Part shown: one piece after another, positions 887 to 52,319 of the stretch
Position numbering within the stretch: position 1 is the stretch's first letter
Layout of the letters: the number at the start of each line of letters is the position of its first letter
From: Escherichia phage JEP8
Sequence record: MT764208.1
DNA length: 64,000 nt
Direction: 5' to 3' (one strand)
Program-made: the position numbers and the translations under genes
Notes under the pieces: model-generated
The model's input: the letters and a program-made list of their open reading frames with translations, nothing else
The model's database searches: none
What the model was told of the DNA's origin: nothing

Positions 887-2000
887 CATTATGTTCAGCG
901 CGGTTCGCTACTCCCGCGCCCGTTCTCTTGCGAACTGCTACATGTCACCATGTAGATCAGACTATATCACATTCTCATAGAGAATCCTGCCATTTCGAAT
1001 CGCTTGATTCTACTCTACTCGGTTCGTTACCCTTTCGATAGTCGTTGAACAACTGCATCTTTAAGCTCATTTTGATCAAACGGTGTTCTCTTACAGTACC
1101 CGCTATAATTCTTAGCAAAAGGTTTCTTCTTACCAAAGATCTCTTTTCCTGAATTATGTGCTTCAACAAGAAAATTCACCATTTCATCAAATGTGAAACT
1201 TGCAAATTTAGCATAAGTTTCATTACGTTTTGACATTATTTTACTCATAACTTCCGGTCGTTTAGACGCTGAATTTTCGCGTTTCTCGCCAGTATTAAAT
1301 GATACCAACTCACCGGAAACATATCTAGGATCATCACAACTAACTCTAAACCGATTTCCTTCATTATCCTTAACGATAACAGTATTCTTTAGCTTTTCTG
1401 CCATAGAATCAAGACCTTTTCGTATAGTGTCCTCATCAGCCCCGAAATATTTCTTTCCGCTCATATCGGTTCTGGCTTTTCCGGTCTTGTTTTCGGATAT
1501 TTTCAGTCTAACTTCCTCTCGCTTGGCTGGGTTATTGTCTCCAGCGAATGCATCTTTGGTTAACGCCTTCACTTTATCGTCATAAGATCCTCTAGAGATG
1601 AAAGCATATGCTCTCTTGCATTCACCGTTATTGAATATTAAGCACAATAACCGATGCGCCTCGACGTGGTCTTCAAACTTAAGCCTAACAAGATTCCATT
1701 TATCTAACCGATATTCAGGGAACATTGACTTCGGGCATATATGATGCACCTCGGAATATTCTTCACCCTGATACGGATTAGACACCAGTTTAATGTAGTC
1801 GTTTAATGCTTCCTCGTTATGTATTTCGTACTTTCTTAAAATGTCTTTCATCTCGCGCCTCCAATGTATATCAATATCTATATACATTATAAGACACGTT
1901 AGCTCAAAATGCAACTGCTGCTGATTGTCTCCTTAGAGATTTCCCAGCAATTAAGCAGGTTATTCGATCACTGTCACCAGTGAAAGCCCCATATCAGTTT
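887..2000 (-). mobile_element. Putative group I intron in gene 43 carrying an HNH homing endonuclease ORF
   Basis: Upstream exon ends ...ACU UCC CU (U at 2001); intervening sequence ends with G at 887; joining restores T-S-L-Y-P-S. GGGG at intron nt 11-14 can pair with exon CCCU (P1, G-U at splice site). P-like AAUUGCUGGGAAA and Q-like AAUCAGCAGC (UGCUG/CAGCA pairing), S-like GAUAUAGUC, and GNRA-capped hairpins (CACUG-GUGA-CAGUG; CUACAUG-GUGA-CAUGUAG). Confidence 0.6.
1027..1851 (-). CDS. HNH homing endonuclease (encoded inside the gene 43 intervening sequence)
   Basis: HNH motif EVHHICPKS...WNLVRL...EDHVEAH. ORF track 1027..1914 trimmed to the ATG at 1851 (MKDILRKYEIHNEE...), which has GGAGG 6 nt upstream. 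Confidence 0.8.
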   Translation of the reverse strand: MKDILRKYEIHNEEALNDYIKLVSNPYQGEEYSEVHHICPKSMFPEYRLDKWNLVRLKFEDHVEAHRLLCLIFNNGECKRAYAFISRGSYDDKVKALTKDAFAGDNNPAKREEVRLKISENKTGKARTDMSGKKYFGADEDTIRKGLDSMAEKLKNTVIVKDNEGNRFRVSCDDPRYVSGELVSFNTGEKRENSASKRPEVMSKIMSKRNETYAKFASFTFDEMVNFLVEAHNSGKEIFGKKKPFAKNYSGYCKRTPFDQNELKDAVVQRLSKG

Positions 2001-3202
2001 AGGGAAGTAAGGTCAAAGCTCATCATCCAACGGTAAGCATTCGGCACAGGTTCTTTTACAAATGCGCCTGGATAAGTCTGCTTAGGCTGTATCTTATTTT
2101 CCGGTACTACTTTACCCTCTGCTTTCAGAGATCCGAAGATAATAGCATCCCATACCTTCATCGGGTTATATACATGGTTAAACTTAATTTTCGCATAGAA
2201 ACATAGACTATACACAAGATCGATAAATCCACGCTTTTTATCAATCGCCAGCACACGGTCAACGTCGCCGATGTTATAATCGATGTAAAGTTGATGGTTG
2301 TCATCACGCAATTTCTTTAATGGACCATCATAATCAACCTTACCGATTCCTGTCTCATATTCAGCAACATAATCTAATGCATATGTTGGTTGAGTCGTAA
2401 AGCTAAATTTCTTGTACAGGTCAATATAATCAAGGCTTTCGATCCCCATGATCGTAAATGCTTCACGCTCGTTGCCAAAATCATCCTGTGAGATTCTGGA
2501 TTTAATCTTACCGCACGGGCTTAGACGGTTTGCCGTTCGACTTCCAAACTTATTCCCGATACGTTTAATGATATATGGAATATCGAATGTTTCTGTGTTC
2601 CAGCCAGTGAAACCAACGGGTCGGTTTTCCTCAAAGAATCGGATGTATTCTAACAGCAATTCATCTTCTGTGTCATAAACGTTATAAACAACGCGCTCCA
2701 CAATATCAGGTCGAAGAATAGACTTGCTTGCTTCCCAGATTTCACCGTTTTTTCCTTTCAAATCAAATACAAAGAAACGATCATGTAAGGAATCATAATG
2801 CGTAATTGCATCGATAGGATATTTCGCTTCTTCTGGTTTAGGAAATTCTGGGGCAGTGACCTCAATATCAACCCACGCTACACGGATTTTATTTCGGTCA
2901 TATCGAATCTCGCCTTTATATGTATCGGACAGATAGGAGATGATAAAATCATCCATCCCTAGTGCCTCTTGCCCCATTTCCCCCATCTTTTTACGCCATT
3001 TGTTGGCCTCGTTCATAGATGGGAATTTTTTAGCAATGCAAGGCTTGCCATAGATATCTTTATAATTCGTAACCATACCAGGCGCGGCATGATGAAATAA
3101 AGTTGGCGTATATTCAACGTAACGCTCTTGTTCTTGTCCAGCATCATCAATATAACGCTCGTAGATCTTATCACCCACTCGCTCACATGACAGAAAATAC
3201 AT
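2001..3202 (-). CDS. 43: DNA polymerase gp43, upstream (N-terminal) exon
   Basis: MYFLSCERVGDKIYERYIDD...DIEV...FDLTSL matches the T4 gp43 N-terminus and 3'-5' exonuclease region (DIEVT, YIDLY...). ATG at 3202 preceded by GGAGGA; the track start at 3232 is GTG. Frame stops with TGA (1994-1996) just past the proposed 5' splice site. Confidence 0.9.
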
Positions 3203-6381: not shown

Positions 6382-6757
6382 TTGCGATCAGACGAGTTAC
6401 TACTACGCTAGCGGCTTCAATCAGCAGTTCATCAGTGTCAATCTGATAACTTTTTTCGAGAATATCTTTACCTCGAATAGTTTTAGCGCCTTTAGCAATT
6501 GAATCATCGTAATACTTGCGCATTGCAGCGATCCATTCTTTTTGCACCATATCATCAATATGCGCGTACAGTTCAAAGCGTGCTTGCTGCGGGATAACCT
6601 TCATTTTAGCTTTCTCGCTTTCTGGCATTTGTAGTACCCACGCTTTACGGATCTTGTTCATTGCTCGGTCAAATTCGAGACTGGTTTTCTTGTTCTGAAT
6701 GTCTGCTACAGTAATTTTAGCCAGGTTTGCGGAAGTAGTCATAATATTAATCTCCAA
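6365..6757 (-). CDS. Hypothetical protein
   Basis: 130-aa ORF tiling with neighbours on the early-gene strand. Confidence 0.55.
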   Translation of the reverse strand: MEINIMTTSANLAKITVADIQNKKTSLEFDRAMNKIRKAWVLQMPESEKAKMKVIPQQARFELYAHIDDMVQKEWIAAMRKYYDDSIAKGAKTIRGKDILEKSYQIDTDELLIEAASVVVTRLIAIADGK

Positions 6758-6772
6758 AATAAAATCAGTATA

Positions 6773-7003
6773 TCACGTTCTAAAGTTTGTTGCAACCCCA
6801 GCATCAGGGTAATCAAGTTTATCAAATTTGGGGACCAGCATAAACTCATGATGACGACAAGACAACATTTTTGTTATGTCTTCATCGCTGTATATGCTGT
6901 TTTTCATATCCCCCATACTAACTACATATTCTTCACCGGAATATAGATTGATTAATGTATACAATTCTAACTCCGGCTGCGTTACTCTGTCAAATGTTAA
7001 CAT
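6773..7003 (-). CDS. Hypothetical small protein
   Basis: 76-aa ORF immediately upstream of gene 46. Confidence 0.45.
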   Translation of the reverse strand: MLTFDRVTQPELELYTLINLYSGEEYVVSMGDMKNSIYSDEDITKMLSCRHHEFMLVPKFDKLDYPDAGVATNFRT

Positions 7004-8687
7004 TCATTTCAGTGAATCGCCCACGTTTAACCATCTTGAGATGACGGCTAAAATCATCAGGGTTATGGTCACGATGGCTGATAATATACACGTTATCATC
7101 TAACTTGTCAATGATGGAATCAAGTGCTTTTACGCCTTGAACGTCAGTAGCCCCATCATAGATTTCATCGAGTACCAACAAAGAAATATTAGTACCAGAT
7201 ACTTTACCAGCAACATCACGCCATGTAAAGAGCATCGCAAGATCAATACGTGCTTTTTCGCCTTGACTGAATGATGTATACGAAAACGATTCACGCCCCC
7301 GTGATTTGATTGTTTCGTTAAACTCTTCATCTAACGTAAAGATATAATCCGCTTCCATGATCTCCAGATAATAAGCAATTCGATCATTGAAATATGGAAT
7401 ATATTTCTTGACGATAGACGCCTTAACACCGGAATCCTTCAACATTTCTGTTACAAATCCGCGATGATATTTTTCAAGAACTAGTTTTGATTTTTCATTG
7501 GTAATCTCTACCAGTTCGTGTTCCAGTTTAGCAAGTTCTTCGGAATTGTCAACCCTTTCTTTTTGTAATTCCTGAATTGCTTTCTGGATCTGTTTAGCCC
7601 GACCTACAGATGCCGTTAAATTAGCTCTCTGTGACTCTATAGCGCGTTTAATTTCCAAGACCTTAGTTTGTGCTGTCTGGAAAGAATTGGCTTTCTCTGC
7701 GTATTCTACGCGCTTCTCGTCAATCAGAGACAGCTTATGTTCTGCTTGTGCTTTTTGCTCGCGCACCGCTTGATCATTACCCTGAATGATCGGTTGTGTA
7801 CACGTAGGACAGACACCGCCTTTCTCGTGCATATGGATAACACGATCAAAGTTCTGGATCTGTGCCCCAATCTGTGCGATAGCCGTATTAATTTTAGCCA
7901 ATGCCGCGCTGGGATCTTCCGGCATAACAACAGCCAATAGCTCATCGGTCAAGCGAGTTTCTTCGGCTTTAAATGCTTTAGCCGATTCCACCTCTTTATC
8001 ATACATATTCTGTAAACGCTGGAGATTCTCGGCACTCGCCTTGCTAGCGTCTTCTATGTACTTTTTATGAGTGTTGATTTGTTGCTGAACGTGATTAGCT
8101 TTCATTTCCTGCATTTGGATATTCTGGGTAATCTCGCGCACATACGCTTTATTCAGTTTATCCATTTCGCCTAGCGTAGCAATATCAAGCAAATCCTCGA
8201 CCAGCTTACGGCGACCCGCTGCCGGAAGACTCATAAACGGAACATAACCCGCAGTGCCTAAAACAACAATCTGCTTAAAGCTGGCTAGGTTCATGCCTAT
8301 GATACCTTCAAAATATTCCTGAAAGTCTTTGGTGCTTGCGCTCTCATCGATCTTTTGACCGTCGCGATGCACTTCGAATACTTCCGGCTTTTGTCCACGT
8401 TTAATATAAAATTCTTTCCCGTCCAGTTCAAACCAGACTTCGACTAACAGTTTCTTTTTGTTGACGCTGTTAATCAATTGGCCTTTCTTGATACTACGAA
8501 ACGGTTTACCAAACAATACAAAGCAAAGCGCCTCGATCATTGTTGATTTACCAGCACCGTTAACACCAGTGATCAGTGTCTTTTTGAATCCGTCTAGCTG
8601 AATCTCAACAGGTTCAGCACCCACGCTCATTATATTTTGATAGCGCAAGGTTTTAAAATTTAACTTTGCCATTAAGCCACTCCGCAA
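6990..8687 (-). CDS. 46: Recombination endonuclease subunit gp46 (SbcC/Rad50-like ATPase)
   Basis: Walker A GVNGAGKST, zinc-hook CPTC, long central coiled coil, C-terminal signature and D-loop (LLVLDEIYDG); 565 aa as in T4 gp46. Confidence 0.9.
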   Translation of the reverse strand: MRSGLMAKLNFKTLRYQNIMSVGAEPVEIQLDGFKKTLITGVNGAGKSTMIEALCFVLFGKPFRSIKKGQLINSVNKKKLLVEVWFELDGKEFYIKRGQKPEVFEVHRDGQKIDESASTKDFQEYFEGIIGMNLASFKQIVVLGTAGYVPFMSLPAAGRRKLVEDLLDIATLGEMDKLNKAYVREITQNIQMQEMKANHVQQQINTHKKYIEDASKASAENLQRLQNMYDKEVESAKAFKAEETRLTDELLAVVMPEDPSAALAKINTAIAQIGAQIQNFDRVIHMHEKGGVCPTCTQPIIQGNDQAVREQKAQAEHKLSLIDEKRVEYAEKANSFQTAQTKVLEIKRAIESQRANLTASVGRAKQIQKAIQELQKERVDNSEELAKLEHELVEITNEKSKLVLEKYHRGFVTEMLKDSGVKASIVKKYIPYFNDRIAYYLEIMEADYIFTLDEEFNETIKSRGRESFSYTSFSQGEKARIDLAMLFTWRDVAGKVSGTNISLLVLDEIYDGATDVQGVKALDSIIDKLDDNVYIISHRDHNPDDFSRHLKMVKRGRFTEMNVNI

Positions 8688-33630: not shown

Positions 33631-33865
33631 TTTCTATCACCTCCACCCAATCAGGTGTTTCCTGAAAGACTCCTTCGCCTTCATGATGGTCGCAACCTTT
33701 ATTGCTGCAATACATCCACCAATCCCACATTCCCCACGGTAAACGATGCATATCGTCGTTACAGCAAGTGAAGATGATAGGCCAACCACATCTACCACAA
33801 CGGCAGTTTTCCTTCATGTGAGCGGTATTAGGCTTCTTCATAGATGACTCCAATATAATCGACAT
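33623..33865 (-). CDS. Hypothetical Zn-ribbon-like protein
   Basis: CRCGRCGW...CCND...CSNKGCDHH. Confidence 0.5.
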   Translation of the reverse strand: MSIILESSMKKPNTAHMKENCRCGRCGWPIIFTCCNDDMHRLPWGMWDWWMYCSNKGCDHHEGEGVFQETPDWVEVIENA

Positions 33866-34068
33866 TTACATTTAGGGCAATGCGGTTCTTTAATATAATA
33901 CCCGTCTGTCTTCGGAACACTAACAGGAGCGGTTTTTATATTGTATTCAGTGAAACAACGAAAACAAGTTACGTTTTCTACAGACTGACGTTTCACCCAA
34001 TCACCGGAATATAGATCATTTTTATTTGTCATATTCAACCACCACAATGTTAATGTCTGGAGTAGCAA
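33838..34068 (-). CDS. Hypothetical Zn-ribbon-like protein
   Basis: CFRCF...CPKCKC. Confidence 0.45.
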   Translation of the reverse strand: MLLQTLTLWWLNMTNKNDLYSGDWVKRQSVENVTCFRCFTEYNIKTAPVSVPKTDGYYIKEPHCPKCKCRLYWSHL

Positions 34069-34477
34069 TATTAATGATCTCTTCTACACATTCCCACTCA
34101 AGGCCACCGATACCGCAACCGATTTTAGGAATATAGAAAGGCTGTATAGCACCCTCAAAAACATCATTGAGAGACTCAAATCCTTTCAGGATAGCACCAT
34201 ATTCAGCATTTGGACCCGGTCGGAATTGGGTATAGAGATTCACCCCGCACCAGTTATAACCATTAACTTGATGCGTCCAGATACTAAACCCACCCAACTT
34301 TTCTACCTTACCGCGAGAAGTTTGCTTGTCAATCTCTAACGCTTGCGGGAACTCTTTCGCGATCTTCGCAGCAATACCAGCGCCCATAGTATGAAAACAA
34401 TTACAACCATGAATTAAATGACCGTTTCCTTGTTTAAACAGGGCGATGAGATCGCCCTTTACAGTATCAATAATCAT
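34022..34477 (-). CDS. Macro-domain protein (TARG1/OARD1-like ADP-ribose-processing fold)
   Basis: GDLIAL...HGCNCFHTMGAGIAAKIAKEFP...PKIGCGIGGLEWECVEEII resembles the TARG1-type macro domain pattern. Confidence 0.6.
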   Translation of the reverse strand: MIIDTVKGDLIALFKQGNGHLIHGCNCFHTMGAGIAAKIAKEFPQALEIDKQTSRGKVEKLGGFSIWTHQVNGYNWCGVNLYTQFRPGPNAEYGAILKGFESLNDVFEGAIQPFYIPKIGCGIGGLEWECVEEIINIATPDINIVVVEYDK

Positions 34478-38698: not shown

Positions 38699-39088
38699 TT
38701 ATTTTGGATCTGGGTATTTGCTGTGTGGTAATTGTAGATGAGGACCATCTTTAAAACTAGTCCAATCCCCACCCCATTCAACAGGAACACCCAATTCTCG
38801 ACCAGCTTGTTTAAATGCATCAGCGATCATGCGGTAATATTTCATGTTCCATGTATCTTTATCTTTCGGATACGCTACAACGTCAACCGCGAAACCGTGA
38901 AGATGACGAGATTTCATAGTCTTAGATTTACCTTCCGCAACATATTTCTTTTGCGTTTCTAGACTACGCACACCTTCCGTAATACCAAAATCGACCGGAG
39001 TCAGTTCTAATGCACGATGAACGACTTTTACCAGGTCTGGATGTACACCAACAAGCCGATCTTTGCTTCTTTGAGATAATCTAAACAT
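38699..39088 (-). CDS. Peptidase M15-type endolysin (probable L-alanyl-D-glutamate endopeptidase)
   Basis: Zn-binding pattern SRHLHGFAVDV ... DGPH typical of M15 cell-wall peptidases; occupies the locus where T4 has lysozyme e; GGGGGTGA RBS. Confidence 0.7.
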   Translation of the reverse strand: MFRLSQRSKDRLVGVHPDLVKVVHRALELTPVDFGITEGVRSLETQKKYVAEGKSKTMKSRHLHGFAVDVVAYPKDKDTWNMKYYRMIADAFKQAGRELGVPVEWGGDWTSFKDGPHLQLPHSKYPDPK

Positions 39089-43598: not shown

Positions 43599-43798
43599 TC
43601 ATAGATCACAGATCCATCTAAAAGCACCACATACAGCGATCAGGAGTGTAGGAACACTTGAGAAGAAAACCAACGTACAAAAATCATCTAGTGTAATACC
43701 GGAATAACTACCGACTGCAATCACACCGATGATCAGACACAGAAAGAAAACAAATGCAATCAGAAACAAAGTATTGCTAAACAGTTTAGTGATCATTA
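43599..43798 (-). CDS. Small membrane protein
   Basis: Start set to the ATG with GGGGTG RBS (MITKLFSNTLFL...). Confidence 0.45.
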
Positions 43799-43989
43799 GA
43801 CACCCCACGACGATCAATTTCAAAAACTTTTTTATCATCAACGAAGCATGTCACAACTGCCTCGTTGACTTCCGCAAATTGTTGTGTTACCCACTTAAGG
43901 TCAGATCGAAACAATGTTCTATTAATAACAAATGTTTTACCGCTCTTATCCTTACCCATAAATTTTGCTTTAACCATATCCAATTCCAT
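43786..43989 (-). CDS. Hypothetical protein
   Basis: 67-aa ORF. Confidence 0.45.
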   Translation of the reverse strand: MELDMVKAKFMGKDKSGKTFVINRTLFRSDLKWVTQQFAEVNEAVVTCFVDDKKVFEIDRRGVSNDH

Positions 43990-44000
43990 ATTATCACCTT

Positions 44001-44159
44001 ATTTGCTAATCGCTAAACCTAATCCGAAGAGAGCACCCGAGGCTACAGTATACCCGAAAGTTTCAAAGGCAGTAAAGACATCTAAGCCACCAGCTAACAG
44101 AGTTGCAGTAAACAGAGTACCAGCTACGAACATAAAAGTTTTACCGATAAATTTCATTT
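44001..44159 (-). CDS. Small membrane protein (52 aa, below ORF-track cutoff)
   Basis: Manual translation MKFIGKTFMFVAGTLFTATLLAGGLDVFTAFETFGYTVASGALFGLGLAISK; preceded by the AAGGAGAATCAAAAA leader. Confidence 0.4.
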
Positions 44160-44189
44160 TTTGATTCTCCTTTCGTTTCGTTTCGATGG

Positions 44190-44222
44190 GAGTATCTTAC
44201 TACCCCCGTTTCATGTTGTCAA
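44190..44222 (-). promoter_or_regulatory. sigma70-type early promoter cassette (TTGACA-N17-TAAGAT)
   Basis: Minus strand TTGACA (44222..44217) followed by TAAGAT and the CCCAUCGAAACGAAACGAAAGGAG leader. Confidence 0.5.
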
Positions 44223-44228
44223 CTATTT

Positions 44229-44603
44229 TTAAGAATATTTTACTTCGTCTACAATGTCTTTCATGACATTGATTTCCATTCCGGTCAGAACACGTTGGAA
44301 CATGTGCTGCACATACGCTTTCAGATATTCATTTGATGGCTTGCTATCGAAAGTCTTTTTAGTGTAGTAGTCATCACCGAAAGCTACTGTAATTACATTT
44401 TCGTCGTCGTTCCAAGCGATATAAGCAAATTTGCCGTTATCCCAGAAGCGAGCACTAATTGCTACTTTTGTTGAATCGAATCCTACTTCGCTGTGAGATT
44501 CAAGAACTACTTGCGTGCCAGTTTCTTTATGAATGTAGTAGCGGGATACTAAGTCAAAGTTACGGGTGTAGTGACATTCGAATTTATCTTTAAACATCAT
44601 CAT
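44229..44603 (-). CDS. Hypothetical protein
   Basis: 124-aa ORF. Confidence 0.55.
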   Translation of the reverse strand: MMMFKDKFECHYTRNFDLVSRYYIHKETGTQVVLESHSEVGFDSTKVAISARFWDNGKFAYIAWNDDENVITVAFGDDYYTKKTFDSKPSNEYLKAYVQHMFQRVLTGMEINVMKDIVDEVKYS

Positions 44604-44637
44604 TTTTTGATTCTCCTAAGTGTGTTTCGATGTGTGC

Positions 44638-44666
44638 ATTATGCTATAGTCGTTTATGGTTGTCAA
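44638..44666 (-). promoter_or_regulatory. sigma70-type early promoter (TTGACA-N17-CATAAT)
   Basis: Minus strand TTGACA (44666..44661) and CATAAT (44643..44638). Confidence 0.6.
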
Positions 44667-44672
44667 CACATA

Positions 44673-44702
44673 AAAACAAAAAACCCCGAAAAATTTTCGG
44701 GG
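44673..44702 (-). terminator. Rho-independent terminator
   Basis: Minus strand CCCCGAAAA-UUUUUCGGGG hairpin followed by a U-run. Confidence 0.6.
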
Positions 44703-44709
44703 TATAAAA

Positions 44710-45180
44710 TTACAGTTTGGTCGTCCACTCCAGGTCTAGATCTTCGACATACTCATGAGATCGGACAATCTCTAAATCGAACTCTAGGTCAGTGCCAAAT
44801 TTACGCGCACCAACATCATAAGAAAGCGTGATATGCGGTACATATTCAGGATAATCCCACGTCGCACCTAAAGCAGTTCCGATATCGTGTCTGAATTGCA
44901 TGTAGTCGCTTTCAAATGCCAGCACAAGTGCATTAGTACCGGATTGAGTTTCAAACACTTTAAGATGACACAGAGAGCCTAAGAACTTTTCCCCTTCTTC
45001 TGGGATAAACGGAACATAGACACGAGAATATAAGATAGTGCTATGCAGTTTATCACGAGGAACGGCATTAGGCAGATCGTAGAACTCCTGCAATTTTTCA
45101 ATGCGGTCTAGTGTATCCTCAGTGAATTTAACAGCCGCATATGTACCTTTAACGGATTCTCGAAACGGGGTCATAATCAA
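44710..45180 (-). CDS. 2H phosphoesterase at the gene 57B position (Acb1-like cyclic-oligonucleotide phosphodiesterase candidate)
   Basis: Two H-x-[TS]-x motifs (HSTILYS and HITLSY) ~80 aa apart, the 2H/LigT-fold signature; directly upstream of 57A. Confidence 0.65.
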   Translation of the reverse strand: MIMTPFRESVKGTYAAVKFTEDTLDRIEKLQEFYDLPNAVPRDKLHSTILYSRVYVPFIPEEGEKFLGSLCHLKVFETQSGTNALVLAFESDYMQFRHDIGTALGATWDYPEYVPHITLSYDVGARKFGTDLEFDLEIVRSHEYVEDLDLEWTTKL

Positions 45181-45443
45181 GCCTCCGTGATCAGTTCTAC
45201 TTCCTCTTTATCGTCTTCCGCTGCTTCGTCTTTAGGGAGAAGTGCTTTCACTTCTTCGACAATAGCATCAAGGGAAACAGTGCCGTTTTCGTCTGGCTGA
45301 ATACCCAGAATGCGTACCAGTTCCATCAATACACGCTCACGATCTTTCAGTTGGCCTTCTAAGAATGCGGCCTTTTCTTGAGTGTCAAACAGACGTACTT
45401 TCAGGACATTAATCATTTGTTCATGCTGATTGGACATATTCAC
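45177..45443 (-). CDS. 57A: Tail-fibre assembly chaperone gp57A
   Basis: 88-aa acidic coiled-coil protein ...LMELVRILGI...AIVEEVKALL...EDDKEE resembling T4 gp57A; position before gene 1. Confidence 0.75.
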   Translation of the reverse strand: MNMSNQHEQMINVLKVRLFDTQEKAAFLEGQLKDRERVLMELVRILGIQPDENGTVSLDAIVEEVKALLPKDEAAEDDKEEVELITEA

Positions 45444-45469: not shown

Positions 45470-46126
45470 TTAAATGTTCGCGAGAATCGCGCTTTCAAAT
45501 TCTTCTAATGTGCCATTATTTATAATGATGGTTTCACCGTCAATAGGCAAAATTCCTTTTTCGGTGGAGTGAGTCGATACAATACCAGTATCACGCTGAA
45601 TATGCAACACCTTAGCACCCATAGCACGCATGAGAGCAATTTCAATAGGCTGACGCACATCAACCACTACAAAATACCCTTCTTCATTTTTGCGCTTCAT
45701 AAACTCATCCACAAAGAGATTACACCAATAAAGCGGATTGATCAAGTTAACCATTATATCAGTACCGAGAGTGGTTAACATGAGACGAATAGACCAGACG
45801 TTATTATGTTTTTCGCCGATCTCATTAACAACCTTGTAAATCTCAGCCAGACGATCACAAGTAAAGGAGCTACCGCCATACTTCGAATCTAGCATAAGCA
45901 GACACTGAATAAACCACTTATGCGCGGTATAGGTATCAATACCTAGATCGGCTTCTCTGTCACGCCCTAACCCGTCAAAGTCAAGATAAGTCAGACCTAA
46001 GTCTGGTTGACATTCGCATAAGATTTCTTTGATCGGTGCTGCCAGTTGATAACTGTGTCCATCAATGATTAACGCGGCAGTGTCTTTTCCTACTCGCTTT
46101 TTACCACAAAGTGCAATCAATTTCAT
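45470..46126 (-). CDS. 1: dNMP kinase gp1
   Basis: P-loop CGKKRVGKDT at the N-terminus; ...WSIRLMLTTLGTDIMVN...VLHIQRD... matches T4 gp1. Confidence 0.85.
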   Translation of the reverse strand: MKLIALCGKKRVGKDTAALIIDGHSYQLAAPIKEILCECQPDLGLTYLDFDGLGRDREADLGIDTYTAHKWFIQCLLMLDSKYGGSSFTCDRLAEIYKVVNEIGEKHNNVWSIRLMLTTLGTDIMVNLINPLYWCNLFVDEFMKRKNEEGYFVVVDVRQPIEIALMRAMGAKVLHIQRDTGIVSTHSTEKGILPIDGETIIINNGTLEEFESAILANI

Positions 46127-46141
46127 TATATAAGCCTCTTA

Positions 46142-46732
46142 TTATTTTCTAAAAACAGGGTGCATAGCTTTAATACCTTCCACCCGCTGACGATCCGCCG
46201 CCTGAATTGCTGGGCGAGGAACGATCAGTTGACCATCACGTTCAATGCTCATTGTTTTAAAGGGAAGAATTGCAGTACACACCAGAGATTCATGCATATC
46301 ATCGGTGTATGTTAACTCAAGTTCCCCCAATTGTGAACACCAACAACCATAAAAGTTAAAGGTGCAAACAATGTTACGGCGTTCATTGTCCATCATGTGG
46401 ACTTGAACGGCTTCCGGCATTGAATCCTTCCACGCTGTGGAGTTACCGTTATTGTAGTCTACTATAGAAAGCATCCATGTGTAAAGGTTTAGATAGCTTT
46501 CCAAATGCTCATCGACAATAAACCGGACTACCAACGGGTCAAACTCCACATGACTAGACGGATAATCAGCAACCGCCAAACCATATTGACCAGCAACTTG
46601 CTTAGTCGGTGGAATGGTTATAGCAGGAAGTGTAACACCTTGAGCATTTAAAGTAAAGCCTTTTGTTAGCTGTCCATCTGGAATATTGATCTGCCAGTTA
46701 CTAGGGTTAGCATAGTTAAAGAGATTAGACAT
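46142..46732 (-). CDS. 3: Tail completion / sheath stabiliser gp3 (by position)
   Basis: 196-aa ORF between genes 1 and 2; assignment mainly by synteny. Confidence 0.55.
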   Translation of the reverse strand: MSNLFNYANPSNWQINIPDGQLTKGFTLNAQGVTLPAITIPPTKQVAGQYGLAVADYPSSHVEFDPLVVRFIVDEHLESYLNLYTWMLSIVDYNNGNSTAWKDSMPEAVQVHMMDNERRNIVCTFNFYGCWCSQLGELELTYTDDMHESLVCTAILPFKTMSIERDGQLIVPRPAIQAADRQRVEGIKAMHPVFRK

Positions 46733-46921: not shown

Positions 46922-47176
46922 ATGACAGAAGACATTTTGTTAAAACTCTATGATCGTTTGGATAACGAATTAGCAACATTGCGGGGTGAAGTTCTCTATT
47001 TGTCTAAATGCAATACAGATCTGCTTAAGCAGATTGCAGAAAGGGATGATCAAATAAAATCCCTTTCAGGTGCATTACGTGATCGCGACAAGGCATTAGA
47101 GATTTTACAGCGTGTTACCAATAAGGAAGAATTAAAAGACTTCTTACATGGTTATGCTCATGCCATCGATCTATAA
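46922..47176 (+). CDS. Hypothetical coiled-coil protein on the opposite strand between genes 3 and 2
   Basis: 84-aa ORF with GAGGA-like RBS, AAUAAAUA element upstream, and a hairpin terminator immediately downstream. Confidence 0.45.
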   Translation: MTEDILLKLYDRLDNELATLRGEVLYLSKCNTDLLKQIAERDDQIKSLSGALRDRDKALEILQRVTNKEELKDFLHGYAHAIDL

Positions 47177-47204
47177 TAAAAAAGCCCGTCATTGACGGGC
47201 TTAA
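47177..47204. terminator. Bidirectional hairpin terminator
   Basis: GCCCGUCA-UUGA-CGGGC flanked by A-run (5') and U-rich (3'); lies between the stop codons of the plus-strand 84-aa ORF and minus-strand gene 2. Confidence 0.6.
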
Positions 47205-47206
47205 TC

Positions 47207-48028
47207 TTATGCATCCTTCCAAACTTTCCTTGCGTCGTATTTCTTGCCTTTTGACATAAACTGATATGTAGGCATATAGATAATATTGCTCCAGTCTTTC
47301 GGGCTAATCTCAACAAGTTTTGTTTTAATGTGTCCCGGTAGATATGCTTTGATCATATGGTCACTACCACGCATACCTTTTACATCGCTCCATTTGATTT
47401 TTAAGCGTGTTTTATTGCTCAAGGTAGGAGTAGATGCATATTGCTTTAAAAGTGCCTCTAAAAACTGCTGACGGGCTTTAGGAGTTACATAGTGTAAGTT
47501 AAGACCCAACATTACAGTATTACCCGCCTTTGTCTTAGAATCACCCAGACAAATGATCAGCGGGAAAACATCCCAATATGGCAAAGTGTCTTTATACTTC
47601 GCATCATACATAAAGGTATAGATTCGCCCTACTTGCGGTTTTACAATCTGGTGTCCCTTTATTCCCGCTTTTATTGTTTTAGTAAACCACTCCTGTGATT
47701 TTTCTTTAGGGCGACTCTTTGATACAGCACGCATAGACGCACGAAAATCATTAATCATCATCATTGCGCGTTGCTGCTTATTGAGACCCTTTGCGCCTTT
47801 CCCTTTTAGTTTTTCAACTTCTATTGCTGTTTTAATTTCGCTGGCATAACGAGACATACTTTTAGTGAAAGTCGCATAGGCTATTCCCTTAGAATCTGCA
47901 AATGCTTTAGCTGTCATGCCTTTGGCTTTTGCTTTCGCAAATTCTACACCCAATTCGACCCACTGTTTAGACTTTCGTTTTTGGGGAGACGGCTTTTCGT
48001 CTTCGGTGATTATTTCAAATACGCTCAT
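47207..48028 (-). CDS. 2: DNA end-protector protein gp2
   Basis: 273 aa (T4 gp2 is ~274 aa); basic N-terminal region; position between 4 and 3; GAGGATAATATT-ATG leader. Confidence 0.7.
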   Translation of the reverse strand: MSVFEIITEDEKPSPQKRKSKQWVELGVEFAKAKAKGMTAKAFADSKGIAYATFTKSMSRYASEIKTAIEVEKLKGKGAKGLNKQQRAMMMINDFRASMRAVSKSRPKEKSQEWFTKTIKAGIKGHQIVKPQVGRIYTFMYDAKYKDTLPYWDVFPLIICLGDSKTKAGNTVMLGLNLHYVTPKARQQFLEALLKQYASTPTLSNKTRLKIKWSDVKGMRGSDHMIKAYLPGHIKTKLVEISPKDWSNIIYMPTYQFMSKGKKYDARKVWKDA

Positions 48029-51512: not shown

Positions 51513-51578
51513 TGGCTGGCGGGTGTCGATGCCCCGCCGTCATAAATAGTTATATAATGATTTAATATGAGGTGTTTT

Positions 51579-52319
51579 ATGATTAAAGTGCATGACGATT
51601 TCAAAGAACTTTATAATGTATGCTCTGAACGTTTTTATTATGATGAAACGAGCGGAACAATTAGACGAAAATATGATTGTAAGAGCAATCATTATAAAGC
51701 GGGTGATGTAGTAGGATATAAAAGAAAACAAAAAAGAACAAATAGTGAAGATGATGTGTGCTATCTGTTTACTAAGATTGATGGAGTTTCTTATTCAATT
51801 CAACAAATTGTCTTCTTGCTTACCGACGGATATATACCAAATTGCATCGATCATATTAACAGAGACACACTAGATAATCACCGTGAAAATCTTCGTGATG
51901 CATCGCGAAGCGGAAATGCTCGCAATAAGTGCAAAGTATATAAAAATGGTTTCGCCTCTTCCGATTACATTGGTGTGTCTAAGCGGGGTTCTGGATTTAG
52001 GTGTCGTATTAGAATAAACCATGTTATTGCATATGATGAAACGTTCGAAAATGAAACATCTGCTGCATATGCATATAACGTAGAATGTATAAAATTAGGT
52101 GTCAGTGAGTATACCAACTTTAATAAATTTGAAGACGAAGAATCTGTTAGGAAACTTTACGAAAAAGAGAAAGAAAATAAAGAGTTTCAAGAATATTGGA
52201 AGGGAACACATAAACAGGGTAAAAGATGGGGTGCTAAAGTTAAGAGTGTGCGTTTGGGTACATTCGAAACAAGGGAAGAAGCTAGACTAGCTATAATTCG
52301 CTACAAAGAGGGGTTTTGA
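51579..52319 (+). CDS. HNH homing endonuclease with two AP2-like DNA-binding domains
   Basis: HNH motif [18 protein letters not shown]; AP2-like segments [38 protein letters not shown] and [35 protein letters not shown]. Start at the second ATG (GAGGTG RBS). Confidence 0.8.

Follow-up and report, generated by a model that had tools for sequence, protein, structure and literature searches.

The gene at the 57B position of the analyzed DNA is very probably the Krischvirus (RB49/Phi1-type) orthologue of the T4 anti-CBASS nuclease Acb1 (gp57B), with its own catalysis and phenotype predicted by homology. The analysis covered a window of 64,000 nucleotides of Escherichia phage JEP8 (MT764208.1), in which the coding sequence, named acb1 (gene 57B) in the following, is located on the minus strand at 44710..45174 and comprises 154 codons followed by a TAA stop codon. 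The Acb1 family is already known: it was described in 2022, has its own Pfam entry and is represented by crystal structures, and acb1 is an ordinary orthologue within it. An identical protein sequence was already made publicly available with the genome record of Phi1, and acb1 does not extend the biology described by Hobbs et al. 2022.

The window belongs to a Krischvirus, an RB49/Phi1-like coliphage. Over the 3.5 kb around acb1, an identity of 97-98% was found to 58 phage records, each of which is an RB49/Phi1-like coliphage (genus Krischvirus). A tblastn search with the acb1 protein likewise gave 58 records at an identity of at least 80%, and an acb1 homologue is present in all 58 Krischvirus-like records. 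The gp57B protein of Phi1 is 100% identical to the acb1 protein.

Assignment of the gene product to the Acb1 family

The acb1 product was matched by the Pfam model Acb1 (PF23474, anti-CBASS protein 1) with 174.4 bits at a cut-off of 27 (E = 1.5e-51), and residues 9-152 were aligned to positions 1-143 of the 144 model positions. Among all PDB sequences searched with phmmer, the sole match was the Acb1 of Erwinia phage FBB1 (7T26/7T27; E = 1.8e-43, residues 10-153), with an identity of about 53%. The alignment with T4 gp57B (NP_049750.1) by BLASTP covers the full length, with 47% identity over 154 aa and an E-value of 3e-47. In the NCBIfam profile scan, no model was matched by the product.

The initial annotation had described the gene as a candidate Acb1-like nuclease on the basis of synteny and motifs, and an alignment with the T4 protein had been proposed as a check. 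The full-length match to PF23474 and the identities to both characterized proteins bear this assignment out, and the functional residues are kept in the alignment with T4 gp57B. The identification of T4 57B as Acb1 was also correct: the T4 gene was identified as Acb1 via activity-guided fractionation, and the structure of the FBB1 protein was solved (Hobbs et al., PMC9117128).

Since the AlphaFold2 model of the product, which was computed with single-sequence input, reached a mean pLDDT of only 37, the assignment of a 2H fold and a C-terminal lid rests on homology to 7T26/7T27. The identity of about 53% to these entries, together with an alignment that continues through the lid, implies a 2H phosphoesterase fold that is compact and has a C-terminal lid. 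FBB1 Acb1 (7T26, apo form; 7T27, with 3′3′-cGAMP) is the closest solved structure. It originates from a phage of another host genus (Erwinia) and lacks a two-residue insertion which is found in the query in the pre-lid β-hairpin (D129-E135 region).

Catalytic and ligand-binding residues

Residues were mapped using an alignment of eight sequences including T4 and FBB1 Acb1, and their roles were taken from PMC9117128. The two motifs reported in the initial annotation could be located as HSTILY from residue 44 and HITLSY from residue 114 (numbering of the 154-aa protein). The first catalytic motif, H44-S45-T46 (45037..45045, minus strand), is aligned with H44/T46 of T4 and the second one, H114-I115-T116 (44827..44835, minus strand), with H113/T115. 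Both motifs are invariant in the eight sequences. In T4 Acb1, H44, T46, H113 and T115 form the catalytic HxT/HxT tetrad (PMC9117128).

By itself, the pair of H-x-[TS]-x motifs is weak evidence, as at least two such motifs were found in 10 of the 91 mechanical ORFs of at least 100 aa in the window (about 10%) and in 3 of the 43 with a length of 120-200 aa. It is the full-length homology that places acb1 far beyond chance.

The base-stacking aromatic residues of T4 Acb1 are Y12, W74, F107 and W147, whereas E141 touches the N6 of adenine, which accounts for the requirement of one or more adenosines in the substrate (PMC9117128). Their counterparts in the query are Y12, F74, Y108 and W150, and the adenine-contacting glutamate is E144. 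Y12 and E144 are invariant in the alignment, while F74 and Y108 are common to the query and FBB1 Acb1, as are all catalytic and ligand-binding residues. The C-terminal lid, which comprises residues 148-154 including W150 (44713..44733, minus strand), is equivalent to residues 145-152 of T4 according to the alignment. In 7T27, this lid is closed above the bound ligand (PMC9117128), and its removal abolishes the activity of Acb1 (bioRxiv 10.1101/2025.08.21.671373). Every residue shown to be important in T4 or FBB1 Acb1 has a counterpart in the query, namely the HxT/HxT tetrad, the four aromatic residues and E144.

Compared to the T4 protein (152 aa), the tetrad, Y12, the equivalent of E141 and the lid tryptophan are identical. 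The differences are the replacement of W74 by F74 and of F107 by Y108, a one-residue insertion at position 81 and a two-residue insertion near positions 131-132 of the query.

Predicted function and substrate range

T4 Acb1 cleaves cGAMP, cUA, cAAA and cAAG independently of metal, whereas cGG and cA4 are not cleaved, and a T4 Δacb1 mutant shows a more than 300-fold defect on CBASS hosts (PMC9117128). In the same study, nine further Acb1 homologues were all found to be active on cGAMP and cAAA, and the RB49-type phage vB_EcoM-G2494 was among the 57 phages of the lysate screen. No literature linking Acb1 with RB49, or Krischvirus with CBASS, was found.

The enzymatic activity, the substrate range and the anti-CBASS phenotype of the acb1 product are predicted from this homology. 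During infection, the product would act as a metal-independent 2H phosphodiesterase that binds the cyclic di- and trinucleotides with at least one adenosine which are made by CD-NTases of CBASS. The expected ligands are 3′3′-cGAMP, cUMP-AMP, cAAA and cAAG. Y12, F74, Y108 and the lid residue W150 would stack on the bases, and E144 would read the N6 of adenine. The adenosine would be strained in such a way that the 2′-OH attacks the 3′-5′ phosphodiester, a reaction predicted to be catalysed by H44/T46 and H114/T116. The signal would be linearized via a 2′,3′-cyclic phosphate intermediate without a metal ion. Destruction of the CBASS signal before the effectors fire would avert abortive infection.

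The substrate spectrum may differ in detail from that of T4 Acb1 at an identity of 47%, and product and substrate patterns vary even inside one structural group of 2H enzymes (bioRxiv 10.1101/2025.08.21.671373). A related reading holds that the product is an enzyme of the Acb1 family whose main target in the lineage is not CBASS but another pathway signalling through adenosine-containing cyclic nucleotides, for example cA3 of type III CRISPR/NucC-type effectors or 2′,3′-c-di-AMP, or whose specificity is shifted compared to T4. Few viral 2H phosphodiesterases are as promiscuous as T4 Acb1, which cleaves 2′3′-c-di-AMP, and the range of its structural group includes signalling molecules of type III CRISPR systems (bioRxiv 10.1101/2025.08.21.671373). 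In addition to the limited identity, the selective setting is unlike that of T4, since Acb2 is not detectable by tblastn in RB49. Against this stand the conservation of all cGAMP-binding residues of 7T27, including the adenine-reading glutamate, the cleavage of cGAMP and cAAA by nine out of nine diverse homologues (PMC9117128) and the frequent occurrence of CBASS in the E. coli host range. A main target other than CBASS or a shifted specificity is judged improbable on these grounds; as a nuance inside the same family, either would widen the assignment as an anti-CBASS nuclease and not contradict it.

An even less probable explanation is a generic LigT-like 2H enzyme, i.e., a 2′-5′ RNA ligase or a 2′,3′-cyclic phosphodiesterase which serves RNA/tRNA repair instead of the cleavage of cyclic oligonucleotides. 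RNA repair pathways do run in T4-like phages. Furthermore, the product is matched by PHROG 755 (E = 1e-54), which bears the label 'RNA ligase' that was copied by RefSeq and many GenBank records, and weak matches to PF13563 (2_5_RNA_ligase2; E = 0.0011) and PF02834 (LigT_PEase; E = 0.057) were obtained. However, both generic 2H models remained below their cut-offs, with 19.4 of 27 bits and 14.1 of 23.3 bits, respectively, compared to 174 bits for Acb1, and the Acb1-specific ligand-contact residues beyond the HxT motifs are kept. The similarity is hence not confined to generic 2H features; a similarity confined to such features is what the initial annotation had named as speaking against its own proposal. 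In addition, the T4 orthologue carries the same 'RNA ligase' label and was found to be a cGAMP nuclease both biochemically and genetically (PMC9117128); the label reflects the transfer of a family name and not a function that was tested.

The relationship of the Acb1-type product to the LigT/2′-5′ RNA ligase family is at the superfamily level only. The members of the LigT/2H superfamily, which includes 2′-5′ oligoadenylate/cGAMP phosphodiesterases of eukaryotic viruses and other clades of phage 2H phosphodiesterases, have the two HxT/S motifs in common with the query, and a metal-independent transesterification is inferred for the fold. In contrast to these likenesses, the sequence similarity of the query to the superfamily models is sub-threshold. 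Other 2H clades have an N-terminal lid or other specificities, whereas Acb1 has a C-terminal lid and an aromatic cage for cyclic di- and trinucleotides (bioRxiv 10.1101/2025.08.21.671373).

In the records of RB49/Phi1-like phages, the gene is publicly labeled as 'RNA ligase', 'gp57B conserved hypothetical protein' or 'hypothetical protein'. The product name 'RNA ligase' in RefSeq records is due to the label of PHROG 755 and is misleading. The main value of the present assignment lies in the correction of the 'RNA ligase' and 'hypothetical' labels in Krischvirus records.

Start site, reading frame and conservation

In the ORF list of the window, the reading frame of acb1 begins with a TTG codon and spans 44710..45180 on the minus strand, which corresponds to 156 aa. 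The existence of this ORF, as given in the initial annotation, was confirmed, but the length is likely to be 154 aa, since the start codon is likely the ATG at 45174, two codons inside the TTG-started ORF. A Shine-Dalgarno sequence GGAGG could be read from the sequence at 45182..45186 (minus strand), within the last codons of gene 57A. It is located 7 nt before the ATG at 45174 and just 1 nt from the TTG at 45180, and the TGA stop codon of 57A (45179-45177) lies between GGAGG and the ATG. Furthermore, the CDS has a length of 465 nt in all annotated Krischvirus records. Because of this spacing and the length of the CDS in the relatives, the ATG was preferred over the TTG. The resulting protein of 154 aa has the termini MTPFRESVKG...EWTTKL.

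For the analysis of substitutions, seven Krischvirus genomes were compared (the window, Phi1, RB49, kaaroe, G2248, Delraymugoa and W115). A total number of 17 variable nucleotide sites was found in acb1, 15 of them in the third and 2 in the first codon position, and none changes an amino acid. Since all 17 variable sites are synonymous, the minus-strand frame is under strong purifying selection. The plus-strand ORFs 44571-44831 and 44887-44982 beneath acb1 were rejected as mechanical, as the variation sits at the third codon positions of the minus-strand frame.

Homologues were found by tblastn in 1,475 phage records, mostly of straboviruses of enterobacteria, Acinetobacter, Aeromonas and Vibrio. 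An origin of acb1 as an accidental ORF with fortuitous motifs, or its decay into a pseudogene, for which the frequency of the motif pair in long mechanical ORFs could be put forward, is excluded by E-values of 1e-43 to 1e-51 and by the absence of non-synonymous changes in the seven genomes, and is also opposed by the number of phage records with a homologue and by the proper Shine-Dalgarno sequence, ATG start codon and terminator of the gene.

Two deviating homologues were observed. In Pseudomonas phage psageK9, an Acb1-like stretch (2501-2776 of the retrieved segment) that is 38% identical to residues 38-123 of the query (E = 5e-8) is located within a 600-aa protein (ORF 1052-2854) beside the terminase, which may represent the fusion of an Acb1-type domain with a virion or portal-region protein. 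In Klebsiella phage vB_KpnM_05F (Slopekvirus), the homologue at the 57B position (2459-3082 of the retrieved segment) has a length of 207 aa with a C-terminal extension of about 50 residues. A lysine is aligned to the lid tryptophan (T4 W147) in this protein, which represents a variant lid architecture within the Acb1 family.

Gene neighborhood and transcript end

In the direction of transcription, acb1 follows gene 57A with a gap of 2 nt, which is the same placement as that of 57B in T4. The description 'immediately upstream of 57A' in the initial annotation is valid in plus-strand coordinates only, since acb1 is located directly downstream of 57A as transcribed. The neighbor itself and the 57B position were correctly recognized, and genes 57A, 1, 3 and 2 were confirmed using PHROG and Pfam. 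Gene 57A (45177..45437, minus strand) encodes the tail-fibre chaperone (PHROG 1002, E = 5e-26; Pfam GP57, 27.3 bits) and is annotated as 57A in Phi1. It is preceded by gene 1 for the dNMP kinase (45470..46126, minus strand; Pfam DNMK, E = 4.5e-68) and by gene 3 for the tail tube terminator/sheath stabiliser (46142..46732, minus strand; PHROG 45, E = 6e-43; gp3 in Phi1), the first gene of the block. Gene 2 (47207-48028, minus strand) is found beyond a small plus-strand ORF which separates it from gene 3.

The gene order 3-1-57A-57B is common to the window, Phi1, T4 and four distant straboviruses, namely Acinetobacter phage Mokit, Aeromonas phage AsFcp_4, Vibrio phage K571 and Klebsiella phage 05F; the genera named for them are Hadassahvirus, Angelvirus and Slopekvirus, in addition to a Vibrio phage. 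In T4 and in the window, the 57B gene forms the end of this block on the same strand. The two phages differ in the junction of 57A and 57B, which overlap by 4 nt in T4 and are separated by the 2-nt gap here.

An intrinsic terminator was identified at 44673..44703 (minus strand), which begins 7 nt past the acb1 stop codon and consists of a 9-bp stem (ACCCCGAAA/TTTCGGGGT) followed by TTTTTGTTTT. The GC-rich hairpin has a folding energy of -12.8 kcal/mol (z = -2.6), and a terminator is annotated at the same site after acb1 in the record of phage G2248. Past the terminator, a near-consensus sigma-70-type promoter (TTGACA-17-CATAAT) is located at 44666-44638, which would serve the next gene. The transcription unit ends with acb1, as this strong intrinsic terminator lies directly past the stop codon and is followed by the sigma-70-type promoter.

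Two promoter candidates were found upstream of 57A on the minus strand, a late-promoter-like box TATAAATA (45524-45517) and a site resembling a sigma-70 promoter (45543-45515). These boxes were not assigned as a promoter of 57A-57B, because TATAAATA is no commoner in the window than expected by chance (5 found, 6.35 expected) and the enrichment of promoter-like sites is only about 2-fold.

Downstream of acb1, the organization differs from T4, in which ipI and a tRNA cluster follow. Here, an ORF of 124 aa (44229-44603, minus strand; PHROG 15253, no known function) and an ORF of 52 aa (43999-44157, minus strand; PHROG 16462, no known function) are found, followed by dmd (Pfam Dmd, E = 8e-16), which encodes an antitoxin against RnlA/LsoA-type toxins. 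The stretch from dmd to the 124-aa ORF spans 43786-44603 on the minus strand. No tRNA genes were found in the window.

Relation to other counter-defense genes

Acb2 (T4 Vs.4) and Apyc1 follow the same strategy as Acb1, i.e., the neutralization of cyclic-nucleotide immune signals. In contrast to Acb1, Acb2 acts as a sponge without enzymatic activity. Apyc1, a cNMP phosphodiesterase of the MBL fold, is directed against Pycsar and shares neither structural nor mechanistic homology with Acb1 (PMC9117128). Using tblastn, no match with E ≤ 1 was obtained for Vs.4/Acb2 in the window or in a complete RB49 genome, a weak negative result for a query of 88 aa. The same was found for T4 IpI in both sequences, which is likewise a weak negative for a small and fast-evolving protein.

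The Krischvirus lineage may have Acb1 as its sole known anti-CBASS factor. A lack of Acb2 in the lineage would matter because the Panoptes guard is triggered by Acb2 more than by Acb1 in T4 infection (PMC12657218). A speculative and rather unlikely extension combines several points: the Krischvirus Acb1 as sole anti-CBASS factor might have shifted substrates, for example sparing 2′,3′-c-di-AMP such that Panoptes-type guards are not tripped, and the ORFs 44229-44603 and 43999-44157 might be counter-defense genes of a small anti-defense cluster.

For RB49/Phi1-like phages, some of which are therapy candidates, resistance to many CBASS systems would be expected from the homology. The same phages may be sensed by guards that detect the loss of cyclic dinucleotides, such as Panoptes (PMC12657218).

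At 34028-34477 (minus strand), the window also encodes a macro-domain homologue of T4 Tk.4 (44% identity to Tk.4; Pfam Macro, E = 6e-7), which is a possible ADP-ribose-removing enzyme.

Insertions and indels in the window

Several indels were observed in the comparison with close relatives. RB49 carries about 0.65 kb (33739-34384 of the retrieved segment) which are missing at 38714-38738 of the window. In Phi1, a 1,032-nt 'endonuclease' gene, ORF130.1 (6708-7739 of the retrieved segment), is located between ORF130 and gene 2; this mobile endonuclease gene is absent from the window, in which ORF130 and gene 2 are adjacent (46922-47207).

A stretch of 0.8 kb (approximately 51520-52308) has no counterpart in RB49 and contains the HNH endonuclease ORF 51567-52319 (plus strand), which encodes 250 aa (Pfam HNH_3, E = 1.2e-7) and is likely a free-standing homing endonuclease.

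The DNA polymerase frame (gene 43) is interrupted inside motif A by a 1.1-kb insertion at 887-2007 (minus strand), which is absent from RB49 (OZ035808). The gene is split at DLTSL | YPS, with the upstream part ending in ...SFDLTSL and the downstream part resuming with YPSIIRQVNISPE, and the frame is continuous in RB49. The insertion holds an ORF of 295 aa (1027-1914) with no Pfam match, and an Rfam group I intron match was found at 938-1198, which is sub-threshold (31 bits compared to a gathering threshold of 50, E = 1e-5). The insertion probably represents a group I intron of the mobile type whose ORF encodes a homing endonuclease.
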